Assembly (NCBI GenBank): GCA_965223425.1 | Contig: OZ245003.1 | Location: forward strand, 64,001-128,000 | Source: Nitrosopumilus sp. | Lineage (GTDB): Archaea > Thermoproteota > Nitrososphaeria > Nitrososphaerales > Nitrosopumilaceae | DNA: 64,000 nucleotides | Direction: 5' to 3' | Shown here: one piece after another, positions 448 through 8,863 of the stretch | Layout: every line of letters starts with the position of its first letter | How positions within the stretch are numbered: the stretch's first letter is position 1 | Program-made: the position numbers and the translations under genes | Notes under the pieces: model-generated | Told to the model about the DNA's origin: nothing | Database searches by the model: none | What the model saw: the letters and a program-made list of their open reading frames with translations, nothing else

Positions 448-1541
448 TACTGTCACTCAAATGTTCTTGAGGTCTAGGGACTTCCTACAGATAAACTTCA
501 TTGCATCAAGCCCCGGCCGCGCAGTCCTGAAATACTCCGACATTGCGTGGCGCATCTGTCCCACTGTACCGTAATACTCAGAGACCAACACGTCGCGTTT
601 TGACTGGTGCCAGTATTCCTCTGTAACGCTGAGCTCGGGAGTTGCAGTCGGAAGCCATATGACCTTGACGTTCTTGTTTCCCTTTAGGAATTTGCTTACA
701 ATTATTCCCTTGTGCTGCGGCGCGTTGTCCATTATTATGGCCACCTTTCCAAAATGCCTTGCCAATTCCTTCAAGTATTGCAGTACGGTCTCCTTGTCGA
801 ATTTGTCGTACGTCCGGAAGAACTGCCTGCCGTCAATCCCGATGGAGCCATACGCCACAACCCTGCCGTGCCGTCCCTTGTACGTCGTTATGATCGGCTG
901 GCCCTCAGGCGACCAGTACTTTGCGCCGGATGTCGGGTCGTCGATGAAGATGGCCTCGTCAAATACCACGACGGCAAAACCCAGTTTTTTCAGGCGTGAA
1001 ATCTGCCTTTTTGCGCTGCGCTGCCATTTTTTGATCTCGTCGATCTCTGCCCTGTTGATGTGGATTCGCCGTACCGTCTTGGCAGTCAGGCCGAGTTTGC
1101 GCATTATCTTTCTGACGTTTGTGATGTGGTACTTTACGCCGTACTTTTTGCAGATGTCTTCTCTTAGCTGCATGGGAGCGATGATGCTGTCAGTCTTGTA
1201 TAACATCTTTTCAATCTTTTTGAGTTTGACCTTTGGCGGCCTTCCGCTCTTGGGAAGATCCCGGAGGGCGTCTATGCCGCCCTCCCTGAAGCGTTCCACC
1301 CAGAAGGAGACCCAGTTCGGGCACTGCATGAGCGAGTCTGCTACATGTTGAATGCTTTCATTGTTCATGCACACCATGTTTACTGCGGCCATCCTCTTGA
1401 CCACCTTGGGATCCCTCTCTTTCTTGTACGCCTTCCTGAGGTCTTCCGGTTTTGCTGCTGGCATTGTAATGCGTGGTACTAGGTGATCAAAATGTATTAC
1501 CATCTAACATGTTTGACCTCAAGAACTTTTGAGTGACAGTA
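448..1541 (-). mobile_element. IS630-family element, apparently intact
   Basis: TIR TACTGTCACTCAAATGTTCTTGAGGTC vs GACCTCAAGAACTTTTGAGTGACAGTA (1 mismatch), flanked by TA on both sides (446-447, 1542-1543). Confidence 0.9.
457..1503 (-). CDS. IS630 transposase
   Basis: HTH + winged HTH, then catalytic VFDEA / MDNAPQH / LPTATPELSVTE motifs. Confidence 0.92.
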   Translation of the reverse strand: MVIHFDHLVPRITMPAAKPEDLRKAYKKERDPKVVKRMAAVNMVCMNNESIQHVADSLMQCPNWVSFWVERFREGGIDALRDLPKSGRPPKVKLKKIEKMLYKTDSIIAPMQLREDICKKYGVKYHITNVRKIMRKLGLTAKTVRRIHINRAEIDEIKKWQRSAKRQISRLKKLGFAVVVFDEAIFIDDPTSGAKYWSPEGQPIITTYKGRHGRVVAYGSIGIDGRQFFRTYDKFDKETVLQYLKELARHFGKVAIIMDNAPQHKGIIVSKFLKGNKNVKVIWLPTATPELSVTEEYWHQSKRDVLVSEYYGTVGQMRHAMSEYFRTARPGLDAMKFICRKSLDLKNI

Positions 1542-2864
1542 TAGTTGGGATTGTACCGTTCCAAAACAGCCCACAAATCACCCGATAGGCGGTGGTCACC
1601 TGGCATACACACATGCTACAAACACGCAGATTATCCTGTTTAAAACACCGGCAAGTGTCACATGATATCTTTGTCTGCCCACCGTGCGACGCAGGTCTAT
1701 CCATAGTAAGTATATAAAAAAACTGAATCATTTTGACAATTATTTTTGGCCAAAAGATCCAAGATCAGCCATACCGCACGCACCTACATGTACAAACAAA
1801 AAAAGAGACAGGTTGCAAGGGGAGCAAAATTTCTGCCAAACACCGGCCGTTGCAGACCTCAAAAAGGCATACAAAAAAGAGACTGATCCCAGAAGACGTG
1901 ACAGGCTGCTTGCGTACATGCAGCGCAAGGACGGCGTGCCGCTAGACAAGATCGGAGGGATGCTAGGAAGGCCCAGGTCAACCATATCTGCATGGCTCAA
2001 CCGCGCACAAGACGAGGGAATGCGCGCAAGATTCGAGCGCAGCGGTAGGGGACGAAAGCACCTGCTAGACGGGCCGCAGGCAAAACAGCTTGCAGCAGAC
2101 CTGGATGCAGGCCCGGAGTCATGCGGCTTTGAGAGCAGCTTGTGGGATTCCAACCTAGTAAGGCTGCACATCAAGAGAAAGTTTGGCGTGCAGTACAGCA
2201 AGACAGGCGTGCTGCAGCTGATCAGGGAGACGGGCTTTTCGTGGAGCAAGGCGCGTCCAAAAAACCCAAGATCAGCCTCAAAAAAAAGAGCAAAAAAAGT
2301 TTCAGGAGCGGGCAAAAAAACCCGTTGCAGAAAAGTCGGCGCAGGGATACGCCGTACTGGCCGGCGATGCATCCTCGATTCAAAAGGCATCAAACAGGCC
2401 CGGCTACGGATGGAGAAGGCGCGGCAAGCGCGCCACATCCACCCCCCCACTCTGTTTTGTCACGCAAGAGAAGATACATCTTTGGAGTCCTGTCAGCAAG
2501 CGCATTTTACTTTATGTCTTATGAAGAGTCAAACAGCGACAGCTTTTGCAGCTTTTTGGAACGGGTTCACAAAAGATTTGGCAGGGTGGTGGTGGTGCTG
2601 TTTGTAGACAATGCGTCATATCACAAATCCAAAAGGGTAAAGGAGTTTCTGGAAAAATACAATGACGGGATAGTTCTGGAGTACCTGCTGCCGTACACGC
2701 CGGAGCTTAATCCCATTGAGACGCAGTGGATGGTGATAAAACGGGTACTGTCTGCAAAGGTGTTTGGCACGCTAGGTGGGATGGAGCAGTCAGTACGTCG
2801 TATGCTGTTTGCCAGAAAGGAGATTCTGCCTGTGAAAATGTTCAGTTATTTAATGTGCTAACTA
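1542..2864 (+). mobile_element. IS630-family element with frameshifted transposase
   Basis: Ends TAGTTGGG...GCTAACTA; ORFs 1684-2607 (HTH part) and 2142-2861 (FVDNASYH, YTPELNPIE); indels in A- and C-runs near 2280 and 2445. Confidence 0.85.
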
Positions 2865-3002
2865 TAGTTTGCAAGGAATGTTTATAAAGAATTCACATGG
2901 ATATGCATAAAGTCTACTGATGACTAGCGGACCGACTTTCCATATATTACATATTAGGAATTATAGGTAATTATTTAAATATCTCTGAGGAATAAATAAT
3001 CC

Positions 3003-3188
3003 ATGGGGAAATCAAGTGCCCCGTTTTTGACAAGAGTAGCAAAGGCCAACACTTCAGACTCGTTAAGAACTACTATACCAAAAGAAATCGTTAGAGAATT
3101 TGATCTTAATGCACATGATGTTTTGGTCTGGCAAGTGAATAAGAAAACCAATGAATTTATTATAAAAAAATGGAGTGGCAAAACATGA
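3003..3188 (+). CDS. AbrB/MazE/SpoVT-type DNA-binding protein
   Basis: SLRTTIPKEIVREFDLNAHDVLVW matches the swapped-hairpin AbrB motif; ATGA overlap with the next gene. Confidence 0.75.
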   Translation: MGKSSAPFLTRVAKANTSDSLRTTIPKEIVREFDLNAHDVLVWQVNKKTNEFIIKKWSGKT

Positions 3189-4294
3189 ATAGAATAATGA
3201 CCCATACACAAAAACGAAGATCTACAAGAACACCCGGAAAAAAATTAACAATCCAAACAATCCAGAATGTCTCAAATCCAACATCGATACATGGAATATA
3301 TCCATACCGTGGAAAAATATCTTCAATTGATGTAATAAATGTAATATCTCAGATGGCATCAGGTAAAAAATTATTAGATCCGTTTTGTGGGACTGGTACC
3401 ATAGTCTATGAAGCATACAAAAAAGGTCTTGATGTAGTGGGAGTAGATCCAAACCCCCTTGCTAGGATTATCACTAATGGTAAAATGAATCTTCGTTTTG
3501 TTAATAGTAAATCTATATATGTCGAAGTAGAGAAATTAATCAAAAAGACTCAAACTACTAATAAAAAAAATAAATGCCCCGCAAATATTAGATGGGCATT
3601 TCATAAAAAAACAATGCACCAGATAATGCAAATGGCTTCATTATATGATGAAATGTCTGATTACATAAAGGCGGTTTTTTGTGGAACTATTTGTTTGGCT
3701 GCACGAGGATGTAATCATTACAAGTGGACATCTACTGCTGTTGGAAAAAATATCACACCTAAAAGATATATTGATTTTTATGAAAAATTTAGAACAAAAT
3801 CAAAAAAACATTATTTGCCATTAAAAGATGATCACAGTGCAGAAATACATCAAAAAGATTCACGTATGTTGTCGAGTTTTATTAAACCAAAATCAATAGA
3901 TTATGTTTTTACTAGCCCACCATACTTTGATGCGTTAGATTACACAGCATATTATGCAAGATTTGTATTTCCAATTTTAGGAATTGATCGTGATTCAGTA
4001 AGAAAACAACTCGTACAATCTATCAAAACATACGAGGAAGATATGAAACTATGTCTCTCAGAGATAGAACAAGTTACAAAAGATGATGCCATGATAATTT
4101 TTGTTGTGGGTGACAAGAAAATTAAAAATAATATCATAAACGGTGGAGATTTTTTCTCAAAAATGTTTTCACATCGCCCAACAAAGATAATTGAACGAAG
4201 CTACAAAGGATCAGCCAGCAAAGTTTTTGATATATTAAATAAAACTAATCGAAAAGAACAGATCGTGATATGGGATAAATCAGAGTGGAGATAA
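3185..4294 (+). CDS. Amino-DNA methyltransferase, probably m4C, alpha motif order
   Basis: HGIYPYRGK, motif [10 protein letters not shown] near the N-terminus, motif IV TSPPY near the C-terminus. Confidence 0.9.
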   Translation: MNRIMTHTQKRRSTRTPGKKLTIQTIQNVSNPTSIHGIYPYRGKISSIDVINVISQMASGKKLLDPFCGTGTIVYEAYKKGLDVVGVDPNPLARIITNGKMNLRFVNSKSIYVEVEKLIKKTQTTNKKNKCPANIRWAFHKKTMHQIMQMASLYDEMSDYIKAVFCGTICLAARGCNHYKWTSTAVGKNITPKRYIDFYEKFRTKSKKHYLPLKDDHSAEIHQKDSRMLSSFIKPKSIDYVFTSPPYFDALDYTAYYARFVFPILGIDRDSVRKQLVQSIKTYEEDMKLCLSEIEQVTKDDAMIIFVVGDKKIKNNIINGGDFFSKMFSHRPTKIIERSYKGSASKVFDILNKTNRKEQIVIWDKSEWR

Positions 4295-5134
4295 TTGGCA
4301 GATTTTTTTATTAAAGATAGTACATTCATGGACGAAGTAAAAGATGCGTCAGTAAGCCTTATAATAACTAGTCCGCCATATTTTGATCTTAAAAACTATG
4401 ATCAAAAGAAAATGAATAAAAATCAAATCGGTTCATCTAAATCATATGATGATTATTTATCAAAACTGAACGCTGTGTGGAAAGAATGTGTTAGAGTTTT
4501 GATCCCAGATGGTAAATTATGCATAAACATCATGCCTCTTTTTTTATCAGGTCATGAAACTGAGTTTAAAAGAAGAGTTACAAAATTAATGATTACCGAT
4601 TTAGAAGACTTCATGGATTCCACAAAAAAAATGTTTACACATGCTTTATTTATTTGGGACAAGAGGAAAATCGTAAGATTTAGCTCATTTGGGAGTTATC
4701 CATACCCACCAAATATTTTTTCAACATTTCCCTTTGAATGGATCATAGTGTTTTCAAAAAAAGGAAAAAGGCCGAAAGTCACATCTAAAATAAAAAAGAA
4801 ATCAAAACTAACTACTAAAGAATGGCAGGATTGGGCAATCAATTCAGTATGGGAGATGAGCCCCGCAAAAGCAAAATCACTTGGCCATCCTGCACCATTT
4901 CCAGAGGAGTTGCCTCATAGATTAATCAAAATGTTTAGCTTTTATGGTGAAATTGTACTAGATCCATTCATGGGGACTGGGACTACTGCTCTGGCTACGG
5001 AGAAATTAGGAAGGCGTGCAATAGGATATGAAATTAATAACAAATATGTCAAAATTGCTAAAAAAAGATTACTTGAAATTTCTAATGAAGAACCTGTGAA
5101 GACGTCTTTATCTCGTTCGATAAAGGTTCTATGA
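4295..5134 (+). CDS. Amino-DNA methyltransferase, probably m4C, beta motif order
   Basis: IITSPPY at the N-terminus; HPAPFPEEL and VLDPFMGTGTT at the C-terminus. Confidence 0.92.
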   Translation: MADFFIKDSTFMDEVKDASVSLIITSPPYFDLKNYDQKKMNKNQIGSSKSYDDYLSKLNAVWKECVRVLIPDGKLCINIMPLFLSGHETEFKRRVTKLMITDLEDFMDSTKKMFTHALFIWDKRKIVRFSSFGSYPYPPNIFSTFPFEWIIVFSKKGKRPKVTSKIKKKSKLTTKEWQDWAINSVWEMSPAKAKSLGHPAPFPEELPHRLIKMFSFYGEIVLDPFMGTGTTALATEKLGRRAIGYEINNKYVKIAKKRLLEISNEEPVKTSLSRSIKVL

Positions 5135-6113
5135 CATATTTGCCATTATTTACTTTTACGACTCCAGCAGTTAGCAATCCAAGCACATCTGGAGAGTTAA
5201 ACACCTGAGGAAAGAATTTATCCCAACATATCTTTCTATCATTAATAATTCCGTTCATTGCAAGAATCCATATTGCATTTGCTGAAATGAATTTGATTTT
5301 ATGTTTTATGATATCCTTATAAAATTTTTCAGATTGATCTCCTATTTTTGTAGTACAATCCCTGTGTGAAGGAGGGAAGAGATGTGTTTCCTTTCCACCA
5401 ATGACTAGAAAAATATAAAAAATTAAATTAACTTTGTTGGCATCAAAATATTCACTGATCTGTCTTTCACATTCTTTAGCATATTCTGGAATCTTCTCTC
5501 TGTATCTCTCATCATCCATCATGGATAGAAAGTTTGTTTTTGTTTCAAAAATCAATACATTAGAATTGCTACGTATACACATATCTAATCTGTTAGGTCT
5601 TGAAGAATTTGGTGTGTCTATTTCTATCTCCGTTCCAATTATCGGATTATTATTTGAGCTTAAAAATTTGAGCATAGATGTAACCCACAATGCAATGTGT
5701 GTAGTTTCATCAGTGCACGTAAAACATTCTAAACTAAAAAAATTCCTTTGGAATCCGCCATATGTTGGAAGTTCAATTCTATTTCCTGTAAAGATACAAT
5801 CTATGTTTTGAATATTTCTAACTGTATCAGTTTGAGTAAATAATTGATTTAATAATTCTGTTTTTATTGGCTCATCAATAGTACGAAATGATTCTTTTGA
5901 GGTAATGCATGAAAGACAACCTATGCATTTTTTTTCATTGATAGTGATGACACCATCGTGAATTTCCAAAGCTTCTATGTCTGTACTACATGTAGGGTAT
6001 TCTCTATTTTGTTCAATATTATCAGATAAAAAATTTAAAAATTGTTTGTTGATGGGGCGGTTAGAATATCGTGGAATATTGAATCTAGATTCTAAGTAAT
6101 TACTGATGCTCAT
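5082..6113 (-). CDS. [4Fe-4S] ferredoxin-like domain fused to PD-(D/E)xK nuclease
   Basis: CSTDIEAL...KKCIGCLSC (CxxCxxC plus remote Cys); E...RLDMCI...LIFETK nuclease motif. Confidence 0.7.
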   Translation of the reverse strand: MSISNYLESRFNIPRYSNRPINKQFLNFLSDNIEQNREYPTCSTDIEALEIHDGVITINEKKCIGCLSCITSKESFRTIDEPIKTELLNQLFTQTDTVRNIQNIDCIFTGNRIELPTYGGFQRNFFSLECFTCTDETTHIALWVTSMLKFLSSNNNPIIGTEIEIDTPNSSRPNRLDMCIRSNSNVLIFETKTNFLSMMDDERYREKIPEYAKECERQISEYFDANKVNLIFYIFLVIGGKETHLFPPSHRDCTTKIGDQSEKFYKDIIKHKIKFISANAIWILAMNGIINDRKICWDKFFPQVFNSPDVLGLLTAGVVKVNNGKYVIEPLSNEIKTSSQVLH

Positions 6114-6114
6114 T

Positions 6115-7311
6115 TTATAACAGCTTTTCCGTTATTTCCTGCACTTTTGGTATTAATTCCGGTGGAGCACCTGTCTGAAGAACTTTCAAATTAATTTGAG
6201 TCAGAGGTTTTAAATTACCATTATTCGTTGTAAATGGAATACCTGCAATTCCTGCTATTTCTCTTTCTTTTTCCATTACTTCCAAAAATTTATTTTGATT
6301 GATTATAAAATCATTCGGATGTTCTGATAGCAAGTCGACAAATTTTCTAAAATTCATAGATTTATGTTCTTTAGCAATTTGTCCAAGACAATACACTAGA
6401 GCAAACCTTCGATTCTTAACTATACCATCATATTGCAATGACATACTTCGAGTTATTTGTTGTCCTCGTTCTCTTAATGATTTAACCGATTTTGTAAGCC
6501 CTGAATAATGTAGTGGTCGTTCAACTTTAGAAGTACCATCAAAAAGAGTTGGAGGTATTAAAATATCATAATTGTGATCAGGCCAGTTTTTTCTTTCTAC
6601 AAAGTCTCTCATTTCTACATGCCATTTTAGCATATTATTTGGTTTTTTGTAATTAGAAGGCATCACAAATCCGGCAGTCGTAGCCCAAGCAAATAATGCT
6701 GATCTTGTTCTTGTAAGGGTATCTTTCTTCGAACCGGTAGATAGTCTGACAAGTTCGCCTTCTGAAGATCTCATAGTTTCATCAGTGTTGGGAAATCCCA
6801 AACTAATTTTTGATTTTAATACTTTATTTGAACCATTTATACTCTTTTTTTGAATGCTGTGTAATAACCCAATAAACGGGCCATATTCCAAAACTGCTTT
6901 CCTAATAATCTTAAGCCACTCTTCTGAATCAAACTTACAACGTGCAAAACTTCTTCCCATATCCGTCAGTTCTAAATCATTTTCCGTCCTATTGATAAAC
7001 CCTAACCCATCTAATGCGTTAACAGCATCACTAGCTGATTTACTTTTTTGTGTATCTAGTTGAATGCTTTGTGTCAAATAACATTTTGCTTTACTTAATG
7101 GGTTGTCCAAATATGGGCATACTTCTGTTTCTAGTGAGGGTTTTTGTATTAAAAGATCACAAAAATCTGTAATGTTGGACTTCGATTCAGCATCATATTT
7201 TATATCCCTAATTGAAAATTTGCTTTGATTGAATTTCTTGTTTAATGTTTGTGTTAACGCATGAAGACAAATCAATCGCCCAGTTGGATTTCGATTTATT
7301 AAAATTGCCAT
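6115..7311 (-). CDS. Putative winged-helix DNA-recognition subunit of restriction system
   Basis: ASDAVNALDGLGFINRTENDLELTDMGRSF and TRTRSALFAWATTAGF resemble wHTH segments of restriction recognition domains; operonic between the two Fe-S proteins. Confidence 0.55.
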   Translation of the reverse strand: MAILINRNPTGRLICLHALTQTLNKKFNQSKFSIRDIKYDAESKSNITDFCDLLIQKPSLETEVCPYLDNPLSKAKCYLTQSIQLDTQKSKSASDAVNALDGLGFINRTENDLELTDMGRSFARCKFDSEEWLKIIRKAVLEYGPFIGLLHSIQKKSINGSNKVLKSKISLGFPNTDETMRSSEGELVRLSTGSKKDTLTRTRSALFAWATTAGFVMPSNYKKPNNMLKWHVEMRDFVERKNWPDHNYDILIPPTLFDGTSKVERPLHYSGLTKSVKSLRERGQQITRSMSLQYDGIVKNRRFALVYCLGQIAKEHKSMNFRKFVDLLSEHPNDFIINQNKFLEVMEKEREIAGIAGIPFTTNNGNLKPLTQINLKVLQTGAPPELIPKVQEITEKLL

Positions 7312-7330
7312 CTAAAATCATATCATCATT

Positions 7331-8038
7331 TCAAGTAAAAAACATCTTTTCCAAATTAGGTTCTTTTCCATCTATCTTATCTTTTAAGACTTTCCATGCT
7401 TCTTTTATTGTTAAAATTTTGAAATTGTTTTCTTGTTTCAACATTGCTATATGTTCATTAACTAGCTCATCATTATTCTCGTGTATGGTCATTGGAACTA
7501 TGACTATTTTTGGAATTCTATAGTTATTCTTTTTTATCAATTCTACTATATCTGTTAACACATTTATTCCATGTTCGATATCATTAAATGAATTAACTAC
7601 TTTTACAATAATTGGTTTTTTATTAATTATCATTAATAATGGAATTTTTTTATAACGATATCCGCCTTTAACTTTTACTTCAAAACCACATAAATTATTT
7701 TGTGAGTTACCTGTAAATACCAATCCCAACCATGTTGTTAGAAATTTTTTATCACTCATTATGTATTTAGCAAATTTGATAAAAGAATCGGATTCTTCTT
7801 GAAAATTAATAAATTTTTTACACGAATATGCACATAATAAACAATCAACACATCTTTCTTGATTTACCCTGTGCTTATCTAATTCTAATGCATCTGTAGG
7901 ACAAGTGAGGATGTCTTCACATCGCATATTTCTTTTATTTAAGAAATTGATGTATGTTCCATCCACAAGAATATTATGTTTAGAATAATCTATCATATTA
8001 TGTATCTTTGAGGCTTTTTCTTTATCGATGTATATCAT
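7331..8038 (-). CDS. [4Fe-4S] ferredoxin-like domain fused to degenerate PD-(D/E)xK-like domain
   Basis: CEDILTCPTDAL...CVDCLLCAYSC; C-terminal half parallels 5082-6113 but lacks the D and ExK residues. Confidence 0.6.
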   Translation of the reverse strand: MIYIDKEKASKIHNMIDYSKHNILVDGTYINFLNKRNMRCEDILTCPTDALELDKHRVNQERCVDCLLCAYSCKKFINFQEESDSFIKFAKYIMSDKKFLTTWLGLVFTGNSQNNLCGFEVKVKGGYRYKKIPLLMIINKKPIIVKVVNSFNDIEHGINVLTDIVELIKKNNYRIPKIVIVPMTIHENNDELVNEHIAMLKQENNFKILTIKEAWKVLKDKIDGKEPNLEKMFFT

Positions 8039-8089
8039 TGGTGTTTTTGAAAGCAGTAGTGTAAAAATATCTTCCTAGCCCCACCTAAC

Positions 8090-8270
8090 TTTACACCCGT
8101 ATGAAAATTGTGAAAGCCCTAGCCAACTTTCCAGTGTATCTTTTTTGGCTTTATCTTCCAAGTATTCTAAGGATAGTTGAATTGCTTCTTTCATGTTTTG
8201 TTTTAATTCTTCTAGCGATCCACCTTGACTAATAGCCCTGATATTTCCAAACATTGACCACTATAACCAG
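8090..8270 (-). pseudogene. HicB-like antitoxin remnant
   Basis: Minus strand GYSGQCLEI / AISQGGSLEELKQNMKEAIQLSLEYL with a 1-nt frameshift; 5' end replaced by the IS110 remnant. Confidence 0.6.
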
Positions 8271-8620
8271 TAGTTCCGATTGTGCTCCCGTCTACCTGCC
8301 AGAATTCTGGCATCTGCCTTATCAGTCTTCTTTTTGGATTCTGCTATCATCTTGGTGGTGTACGGGTTTGGCAGTGACGCGTCCATCCTCATCTCGTCTC
8401 TTATCTGAAAGAATGGTATCTTCCAGACCGATGAGGATTCCATCACAAGTTTGAGTCATTATGTAAATAGCTGACGTTGTCCCTGATGTCTTTGGTGGTG
8501 TTAGATATCTTTTTGTTGAGCAGTTCCTCGCCGTTTTTATCCATGACAGACATCTGGATGGTCTTCTTGTGGACATCCAGGCCGGCATGTCAGCTGTCTT
8601 TGTAGCCTTGGATCTAGGGC
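8271..8620 (-). pseudogene. IS110-family transposase N-terminal remnant
   Basis: HAGLDVHKKTIQMSVMDKNGE...MESSSVW...KKTDKADARILA (DEDD domain), frameshifted and truncated. Confidence 0.8.
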
Positions 8621-8641
8621 TGTGTGTTTGTTTGCATTTCT

Positions 8642-8723
8642 AATCCTTTTAACAGTTGGATCTTTTTGAATTTGAACTATTCTTATCATCATCTAATTTC
8701 CTTGATCGGAGCGCATAAGATTA
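8642..8723. repeat. Degenerate MITE-like repeat, second copy at 36893-37083
   Basis: Shares TTTGAATTTGA...TCTTATCATCATCTAATTTCCTTGATCGG.GC.CATAAGATTAC with 36920-36975 plus 37078-37082. Confidence 0.6.
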
Positions 8724-8771: not shown

Positions 8772-8863
8772 GGGCTTGTGGCGCAGAGTCATTTGACGCG
8801 AAATATGGATAGCGTGGTAACCTCCTAAGTTACAGGTCGAGGGATCGAAGCCCTCCAAGCCCG
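8772..8863 (+). tRNA. tRNA-Arg(CCT) with 17-nt D-loop intron (8787-8803)
   Basis: Acceptor GGGCTTG/CAAGCCC; anticodon arm GTAAC-CTCCTAA-GTTAC; T-arm GAGGG-ATCGAAG-CCCTC; BHB-like motif in the D-loop. Confidence 0.9.

Follow-up and report, generated by a model that had tools for sequence, protein, structure and literature searches.

A probable Type IIS-like restriction–modification cassette with separate recognition and nuclease proteins in an ammonia-oxidizing archaeon

What kind of enzyme is encoded by a tight operon of three genes that runs head-on into a pair of DNA methyltransferase genes in the genome of a Nitrosopumilus archaeon? The locus occupies positions 3003–8038 of a 64,000-nucleotide stretch of contig OZ245003.1 (positions 64,001 to 128,000 of the forward strand), which we refer to as the window. 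Two methyltransferases, M-alpha and M-beta, are encoded on the plus strand behind a gene for a 61-amino-acid (61-aa) protein, and the minus-strand operon encodes the proteins that we term RA (235 aa), RB (398 aa) and RC (343 aa). An original prediction, made from the DNA of the window, had seen in these genes a candidate new restriction–modification system; translation of the open reading frames (ORFs) of the window recovered all six genes, intact, at the coordinates it gave, with the same operon layout, convergence, overlaps and motifs. We find that the cassette is probably a Type IIS-like (heteromeric, IIT-style) restriction–modification system that was acquired horizontally by an ammonia-oxidizing archaeon, a reading that draws on sequence comparison and on structural models.

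RB, a predicted stand-alone FokI-type recognition protein

The middle gene of the operon, RB (6115–7311, minus strand), gave the clearest structural relationship. Its AlphaFold2 (AF2) model, built with 40 homologs, had a predicted local distance difference test (pLDDT) score of 92.4 and a predicted template modelling (pTM) score of 0.92, and in a Foldseek search with the model the FokI chains of 2fok and 1fok were the only significant matches (E 6.9e-6 to 1.7e-5). Alignment with VIA-align placed RB on 1fok_A at Z 20.9 (root-mean-square deviation 4.0, 286 residues aligned, ~16% identity), with model residues 1–390 mapping to FokI residues 7–385, which correspond to the recognition domain and not to the cleavage domain. 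By the same method, residues 7–286 of Nt.BspD6I aligned at Z 9.0–9.3, and single winged-helix regulators reached Z 7 at most. A search of the Atlas with language-model features returned a FokI D1/D2/D3 cluster in second place (0.92).

HMMER sequence searches alone gave no link from the RB family to FokI. In the window protein, Pfam found only AAA_assoc_C, exactly at its cut-off; among 40 RB homologs, the same family was found in 20 and FokI_dom_2 in one (E 0.088). The model nevertheless predicts three winged-helix subdomains in the arrangement of FokI, and RB is, on this structural basis, a putative free-standing FokI-type (D1–D3) DNA-recognition domain. The 398-aa protein had been described beforehand as winged helix-turn-helix-like, and a separate specificity subunit had been proposed; the fit to the FokI recognition domain agrees with both.

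RC with a complete nuclease site and RA with a degenerate one

RC (5082–6113, minus strand) is encoded after a 1-nt spacer behind RB, and the 3′ end of its gene overlaps that of M-beta by 53 nt. Its AF2 model had a pLDDT of 84.1 and was weakest at residues 41–80, where a metal cluster would sit. The best Foldseek match was weak (E 9e-3), with almost all matches being PD-(D/E)xK nucleases. VIA-align gave its best match to the cleavage domain of the BspD6I large subunit, residues 364–602 of N.BspD6I (Z 9.3–9.4), followed by FokI (Z 8.3) and the small subunit of BspD6I (2p14; Z 8.1, 159 of 186 residues aligned), and the weaker leads from the Atlas were a FokI_cleav_dom cluster (0.80) and an RE_AlwI cluster (0.79). 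Six residues do not vary among the 54 distinct RC sequences: E136, E162, R175, D177, E190 and K192. Four of them fall in the motifs RLD (175–177) and ETK (190–192), and the catalytic core that spans residues 136–192, with E136, E162, D177, E190 and K192, is encoded at 5538–5708 (minus strand). From fold and conservation together, RC is predicted to be the catalytic subunit, with a FokI/BspD6I-type PD-(D/E)xK domain and a complete E...D...ExK site, in keeping with the PD-(D/E)xK nuclease first proposed for the 343-aa protein.

The first gene of the operon, RA (7331–8038, minus strand; 19-nt spacer to RB), encodes a paralog of RC. The N-terminal 60 residues of the two proteins match in BLASTP at E 8e-7, and alignment of the two families with hhalign (81% probability, E 1.2e-5) extends over 170 columns that include the nuclease core. 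Among 64 distinct RA sequences, R128 is present in 64, R131 in 63 and K146 in 62. Position 144, which corresponds to the acid of the ExK motif (E190 of RC), is hydrophobic in all 64 and never acidic, and at position 133, which corresponds to D177 of RC, 32 sequences have Pro, the window protein among them, 19 have Asp and 13 have Glu. Only positions 155 and 160 are acidic in at least 70% of sequences, and neither aligns with a catalytic position of RC, whose helix residue E136 also lacks a conserved counterpart in RA. This pattern marks RA as a putative catalytically dead paralog, a pseudo-nuclease, much as the 235-aa protein had been labelled a degenerate nuclease. Because RA was present in 72 of 72 evaluable loci (see below), it would have a structural role, and we suggest that it may pair with RC in a pseudo-dimer. 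A complex prediction for RA, RC and RB, with RB as the partner, reached a score of 0.19 (mark 0.32) and bears neither way.

The same alignment speaks to a different reading of the cassette as a true two-site Type IIT enzyme, in which RA would be active through non-canonical residues and cut the second strand as the small subunit of BspD6I does. A passage of Pingoud et al. 2014 (PMC4081073) states that in some PD-(D/E)xK enzymes, BspD6I included, catalytic residues are supplied by other parts of the protein, so that activity of RA by this route is conceivable; RA is a full-length paralog that is never missing, keeps K146 almost throughout and has Asp or Glu at the Asp-equivalent position in 32 of 64 sequences. 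Set against this are the uniformly hydrophobic ExK position, the Pro at the Asp-equivalent position in the other 32 sequences, window RA among them, the location of the two conserved acidic columns away from the catalytic positions of RC, and the loss of an E136 counterpart. We regard an active RA as unlikely and retain RA as the dead partner of RC.

Conservation of the cassette in archaea and bacteria

Homologous loci were collected from two sources: species genomes scanned with an RC alignment yielded 5 loci, and metagenome contigs scanned with an RB alignment yielded 73. Four of the species-genome loci belong to Clostridia, with Clostridium tyrobutyricum ATCC 25755 and Haloimpatiens lingqiaonensis among the hosts, and the fifth belongs to a metagenome-assembled genome (MAG) of an Omnitrophota. 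All ORFs of the 78 loci were searched by jackhmmer with the six proteins of the window, and a gene was counted only where the flank was long enough. RB had RA as a neighbour in all 72 loci that could be evaluated and RC in 57 of 58; where the flanks on both sides sufficed, both methyltransferases were found without exception (26 of 26 loci). The five core genes occurred together in 53 loci, in a convergent arrangement as in the window (24 loci) or in the colinear order M-alpha, M-beta, RA, RB, RC (29 loci). Together, these results establish the five core genes as a conserved mobile cassette of archaea and bacteria; in the neighbourhood check put forward with the original prediction, both methyltransferases accompanied the operon at all 26 loci that could be scored for them.

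In the single locus that lacks RC (L028, 1184–2434), RB is broken off at about residue 338 into unrelated sequence. This is a decayed copy of the cassette, with no RC or methyltransferase within 4 kb downstream.

A word-indexed protein collection contained only 13 relatives of RC, 5 of RA and at least 102 of RB, and a full HMMER scan of 1.84 billion proteins with the RB profile returned 146 cluster representatives, none longer than 448 aa. Public records name RA, RB and RC 'hypothetical protein'.

At the Omnitrophota locus (L002, 3127–9098), the neighbours of the cassette are very large ORFs, one of 1139 aa and another exceeding 480 aa. These are repetitive and, by eye, lectin- or fibre-like and phage-tail-like, and the cassette may ride on a prophage there.

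Paired methyltransferases and a variable regulator slot

M-alpha (3170–4294, plus strand; 374 aa) and M-beta (4295–5134, plus strand; 279 aa) abut one another, and both belong to the Pfam family N6_N4_Mtase (PF01555; 39.4 and 160.5 bits, respectively, cut-off 26.7) and match the PADLOC model MTase_II (E 3.7e-18 and 1.7e-70). They differ in motif order: M-alpha has the alpha order, with an FxGxG-type motif (about residue 70) ahead of SPPY (about residue 245), and M-beta has the beta order, with SPPY (residues 26–29) ahead of the FxGxG-type motif (about residue 222). M-alpha is 48–52% identical in the five species-genome loci (L002–L006). A restriction–modification system with paired methyltransferases had been proposed from the outset, and a cassette with two putative strand-partner N6_N4 methyltransferases at all 26 evaluable loci is what we found.

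The best solved relative of M-beta is 2zie (E 4e-40), and solved relatives include N4-methylcytosine (m4C) and N6-methyladenine (m6A) enzymes at similar E-values; public names for the Clostridium homolog of M-alpha conflict, giving either an N4-cytosine-specific enzyme or an adenine methylase. The SPPY motif points to N4-cytosine methylation, and it is this motif alone that suggests an N4-cytosine product for the pair.

The 61-aa protein is encoded upstream (3003–3188, plus strand), in an ORF that overlaps that of M-alpha by 19 nt. It matches the Pfam family MazE_antitoxin (PF04014) at E 6.4e-5, and we take this family to have the SpoVT/AbrB-type fold. The score of 23.3 bits lies just under the cut-off of 24.7, so that the earlier label of the gene as AbrB-like is probable rather than established. 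The protein had no jackhmmer match in the 78 loci and is not conserved with the cassette. Elsewhere, the slot upstream of M-alpha holds genes with HTH_3 (L003, L033 and L034), HTH_17 (L017 and L027) or RepB-RCR_reg-like (L012) domains, and in L004 a gene for a Cro/C1 helix-turn-helix protein lies directly upstream of RA, with a near-identical ORF in the same place in L005. Such non-orthologous replacement in one position is typical of the controller proteins of restriction–modification systems. Because unrelated small DNA-binding proteins replace one another in the slot before M-alpha, we infer from this position alone that the 61-aa protein may be the controller of the methyltransferase operon.

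L004 (10697–10918, minus strand) and L005 (10758–10934, minus strand) carry an ORF of 58–73 aa upstream of M-alpha, without a Pfam match, whose public name, 'sucrose-6-phosphate hydrolase', cannot fit its size. We considered these ORFs as AbrB-like and rejected them, as Pfam found nothing and BLASTP against the 61-aa protein of the window gave E 8.4.

The gene neighbourhood also allows a reading other than classical restriction, in which RB would regulate transcription, RA and RC would have another role, such as that of a mobile-element nuclease or redox enzyme, and the two methyltransferases would be orphans that merely lie beside them. RB is indeed built of winged-helix units and its sole Pfam match is AAA_assoc_C at the cut-off; no PADLOC defence model covers RA, RB or RC, and all three are publicly 'hypothetical'. 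A mere regulator, however, is hard to square with the Z score of 20.9 at which RB fits all three subdomains of the FokI recognition domain, compared with 7 or less for single winged-helix regulators, and RC fits the cleavage domains of the same enzyme families. The five genes moreover stay together in two gene orders and in archaeal and bacterial hosts, and small regulator genes hold slots of their own. We therefore give this explanation very little weight and treat the cassette as a probable restriction–modification system in what follows.

A ferredoxin-derived cysteine module

Both nuclease-like subunits carry a Cys module ahead of the nuclease region. In RC the residues are C42 and a CxxCxxC motif (C63, C66 and C69), candidate ligands of a [4Fe-4S] cluster that are encoded at 5907–5990 (minus strand). 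RA has C46, within CPTDAL, and CxxCxxCxxxC (C63, C66, C69 and C73), encoded at 7820–7903 (minus strand). Pfam Fer4 scored the two window proteins at 15.8 and 18.7 bits, below its cut-off of 21.1 (E 0.0015 for RA). A profile of 56 positions built from 28 RA and RC homologs was searched against solved structures and matched RnfB (E 3.3e-10), an oxidoreductase iron–sulfur subunit (5.6e-10) and clostridial ferredoxin 1fdn (1.3e-8); it returned 219 sequences at E ≤1, and the 60 of these that were listed are all iron–sulfur proteins. The alignments shown run from the Cys before the linker through CxxCxxC, and we take C...CxxCxxC to be the four ligands of one cluster in the clostridial ferredoxin pattern. 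In the homologs, the upstream Cys lies 15–22 residues from CxxCxxC, matching the spacing of about 17 in clostridial ferredoxins.

Members of the family vary around this pattern. CxxCxxC is present in 47 of 54 RC homologs; Fer4 was detected at E ≤0.1 in 9 of 17 RC members and 4 of 24 RA members, and the Atlas clusters nearest to RC are of similar length and have Fer4 in 97–100% of their members. Clostridial RA proteins have eight Cys in a dicluster-like pattern, and RC proteins of the colinear type keep CxxCxxCxxxC, with P, V, I or T as the next residue and G after it. The RC of the window has lost two elements of the canonical CxxCxxCxxxCP, its fourth Cys and its Pro. Ferredoxin ancestry of the module is well supported by these profile comparisons.

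The distribution of the module bears on its function. Of 50 distinct cassettes with three complete R genes, 17 have it in both subunits, 26 have it in RC alone (all of these being colinear) and 7 lack it in both. In a quick tree of RB, midpoint-rooted for drawing only and otherwise unrooted, six of the seven module-less cassettes form one clade that is sister to the clade of the window, and the cassettes in which RA and RC both have the module fall on either side of the midpoint, a pattern that fits module loss rather than gain. With 7 of the 50 cassettes lacking it altogether, the module is accessory and cannot be essential to the mechanism, and its distribution argues for an accessory or structural role over obligatory redox or iron gating. 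Of the iron–sulfur-bearing nuclease subunits in the original prediction, the ferredoxin derivation of the module thus stands, and its place as a defining feature does not.

The same restriction system might instead hold structural zinc in its Cys4 module, with ferredoxin descent and no iron–sulfur cluster. This alternative, which we consider possible although clearly the less probable, gains from the sub-threshold Fer4 scores, from the missing fourth Cys and Pro in RC, from the aerobic host that its archaeal amoA indicates (see below) and from the dispensability of the module in some systems. Iron–sulfur binding is favoured by the profile, which matches bona fide 4Fe-4S domains at E 3e-10 over exactly the four ligand positions of one cluster, by the ferredoxin-like spacing of the upstream Cys, by the eight Cys retained in clostridial RA and by the retention of CxxCxxCxxxC, then P/V/I/T and G, in colinear-type RC. 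Our preferred reading is that each Cys module would hold one [4Fe-4S] cluster, as an element of structure or of contact with DNA or another subunit and not as a required catalytic or redox part.

Relation to known restriction enzymes

The closest likeness is to the Type IIS enzyme FokI (1fok and 2fok). RB covers its whole D1–D3 recognition domain, the nuclease domain of RC is alike, and in both systems there is one active catalytic site per recognition unit. FokI, in contrast, is one polypeptide, and each of the 58 loci with both RB and RC encodes them in separate genes; no fused form of RB was found among the 146 RB cluster representatives, the longest of which is 448 aa. FokI also has neither an additional dead nuclease paralog nor ferredoxin-derived modules.

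The second likeness is to R.BspD6I and BstNBI, which consist of a 604-aa nickase and a 186-aa catalytic subunit. BspD6I is the best structural match of RC, and RB matches its N terminus. A passage of PMC4081073 describes a large subunit that reads DNA and cuts one strand and a small subunit that cuts the other; the resemblance to the cassette lies in a multi-subunit organization in which only one subunit reads the DNA. In BspD6I, however, one of the two nuclease units, both of them active, is joined to the recognition domain, whereas in the cassette recognition stands alone, one nuclease unit is degenerate and Cys modules are present.

Heteromeric Type IIT enzymes generally come with two methyltransferases, one per strand, according to the part of Pingoud et al. 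2014 (PMC4081073) that treats them. In this original sense of the type, that is, different R subunits and two methyltransferases, the cassette corresponds, with the five genes together in 53 loci. A passage of the same source (PMC4081073) redefines Type IIT by two different catalytic sites, and to this the cassette does not correspond, as RA is without catalytic acids. BbvCI and Bpu10I, too, have paralogous R subunits side by side with two methyltransferases and an asymmetric site, as outlined in passages of PMC4081073 and PMC6326814. In these enzymes both subunits recognize and cut, without a separate specificity protein, unlike in the cassette, and no structural match to either was found among the searches with the RB and RC models.

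BslI, named in the original prediction as the comparison to exclude, is reportedly Cys-rich. Neither its sequence nor its structure was among the matches of RA, RB, RC or the module profile in searches against solved structures. It is a multi-subunit Type II enzyme, an alpha2:beta2 heterotetramer in the portion of PMC4081073 that describes it. Its site is palindromic and interrupted, so that no strand-partner pair of methyltransferases is needed; this sets BslI apart from the cassette by description only.

AddB and Dna2 combine a nuclease with a four-Cys cluster, and in these enzymes and in Cas4 the Cys ligands flank the nuclease fold as an 'iron staple' and do not form a ferredoxin domain. 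The module of RC is, unlike theirs, a separate N-terminal ferredoxin-derived unit, and none of Cas4, AddB and Dna2 was among the structural matches of RC. With Cas4, RC shares the combination of a PD-(D/E)xK or RecB-type nuclease and a four-Cys cluster that is described in a passage of PMC4176176.

Family and literature searches returned no described equivalent. PADLOC defence models gave no family for RA, RB or RC at E ≤1, with MTase_II as the only hit, for the methyltransferases; NCBIfam had no family above its cut-off for the three proteins, and phmmer against solved structures gave as best matches a designed protein (E 0.0031) and HycB3 (E 0.01). Pfam found neither an ATPase nor a helicase domain in RA, RB or RC, as had been expected. 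In open-access PubMed Central and bioRxiv, with REBASE not covered, we found no report of a restriction enzyme with an iron–sulfur or ferredoxin-type module. Two articles that the search raised were set aside: the only 'ferredoxin' in PMC11779793 is a promoter, and the only 'iron-sulfur' in PMC12602166 is a reference on DndC.

The claim that the system falls outside Types I–IV has to be given up, for its parts are those of FokI and R.BspD6I (Type IIS/IIT), spread over three polypeptides. What is new here is the stand-alone recognition domain, the dead second nuclease unit and the ferredoxin-derived module on the nuclease subunits. The system would work like FokI and Type IIT enzymes and is a new variant that belongs to neither, because it is not one polypeptide, as the FokI type would be, and does not have the two catalytic sites of the redefined IIT.

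Host and surroundings of the cassette

The host genome encodes archaeal AmoA (392 bits; L081, G000:C1:2249938–2250486), from which it follows that the host is an ammonia-oxidizing archaeon and an aerobe. RB was found in none of the 60 related genomes searched, 36 of them of the same genus, and M-beta of the window is 67–71% identical to that of bacterial loci. Because RB is absent from 60 of 60 relatives, M-beta is this similar to its bacterial counterparts and the host is an archaeon, the cassette is best explained as a horizontally acquired island. A tblastn search with RB against plasmid and phage collections gave no match, and viral contigs scanned with the RB alignment were likewise negative.

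Mobility is also favoured by the insertion sequence (IS) elements beside the cassette. Two IS630-type (DDE_3) transposase genes lie at 457–2861 of the window, with a guanine-plus-cytosine (GC) content of about 0.5 in a region of about 0.32. One is intact (457–1503, minus strand; 348 aa) and the other is split over two frames (1684–2607 and 2142–2861, plus strand). The GC content of the cassette is 0.28–0.34 compared with 0.48–0.52 at positions 501–3000. On the other side, short ORFs of 51–88 aa without a Pfam match occupy 8075–8692 (minus strand). The heavy decay noted near the cassette is therefore present, as a split transposase gene on one side and short ORF fragments on the other.

Three further observations concern these surroundings. 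By eye, the short ORFs at 8075–8692 may be remnants of an antitoxin-like gene and an IS transposase. A tRNA-like element at 8793–8858 (plus strand) scored 27.3 bits with the Rfam tRNA model, just short of the gathering score of 29, and was not called by ARAGORN. Given its position on the border of the island, it may have served as an integration target, or it may be a tRNA interrupted by an archaeal intron. Finally, an aerobic archaeal host here carries a cassette that is otherwise met in Clostridia and in many metagenomes.

Discussion

The results allow us to propose how the cassette may work. RB would read an asymmetric site and recruit RC, probably as an RA–RC pseudo-dimer, and RC would cut at a fixed offset from the site of RB. 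Because an RA–RC pair has one active site, a double-strand break would probably require two RC domains to be brought together, in the manner of FokI. Each methyltransferase would protect one strand, and the 61-aa AbrB-type protein may act as controller of the methyltransferase operon.

Several points weigh against this reading. All members of the family are known from genes and sequences alone. Cleavage of both strands is a guess, and the enzyme might only nick. The structural matches of RC are moderate (Z 8–9.4; best Foldseek E 9e-3), the conceivable recruitment of catalytic residues by RA would undo its role as a dead partner, and Type IIT in its redefined sense does not cover the cassette. 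Neither window protein reaches the Fer4 cut-off, zinc can be bound by a Cys4 site, and the absence of the module from both subunits of some cassettes tells against an essential role in the mechanism. The AbrB assignment, too, is below the Pfam cut-off, and its gene is not kept with the cassette. A FokI-like system with a dead partner subunit nonetheless remains the probable one.

A bolder proposal is [4Fe-4S]-dependent restriction, in which the RA and RC modules would control assembly with RB or cleavage itself, and oxidation or iron shortage would turn restriction off. Separately from this, the stand-alone RB could serve a shared nuclease as a targeting module that is exchanged in nature. We hold this proposal to be a long shot. 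Were it true, dependence on an iron–sulfur cluster would be a first among restriction endonucleases and would give them a built-in switch for restriction alleviation. Should the cluster be real, restriction enzymes would join the growing list of DNA enzymes with iron–sulfur clusters.

The recognition and cleavage domains of FokI are the textbook case of separable modules. Here, recognition and cleavage appear to be kept as separate proteins, together with a dead paralog, across at least 78 archaeal and bacterial loci, and the cassette would be a ready system for studying how a nuclease without sequence specificity is recruited and licensed by a protein that reads the sequence. With RA, RB and RC labelled 'hypothetical protein', such systems may be missed as restriction barriers in the organisms that carry them, for example in Clostridium tyrobutyricum ATCC 25755.

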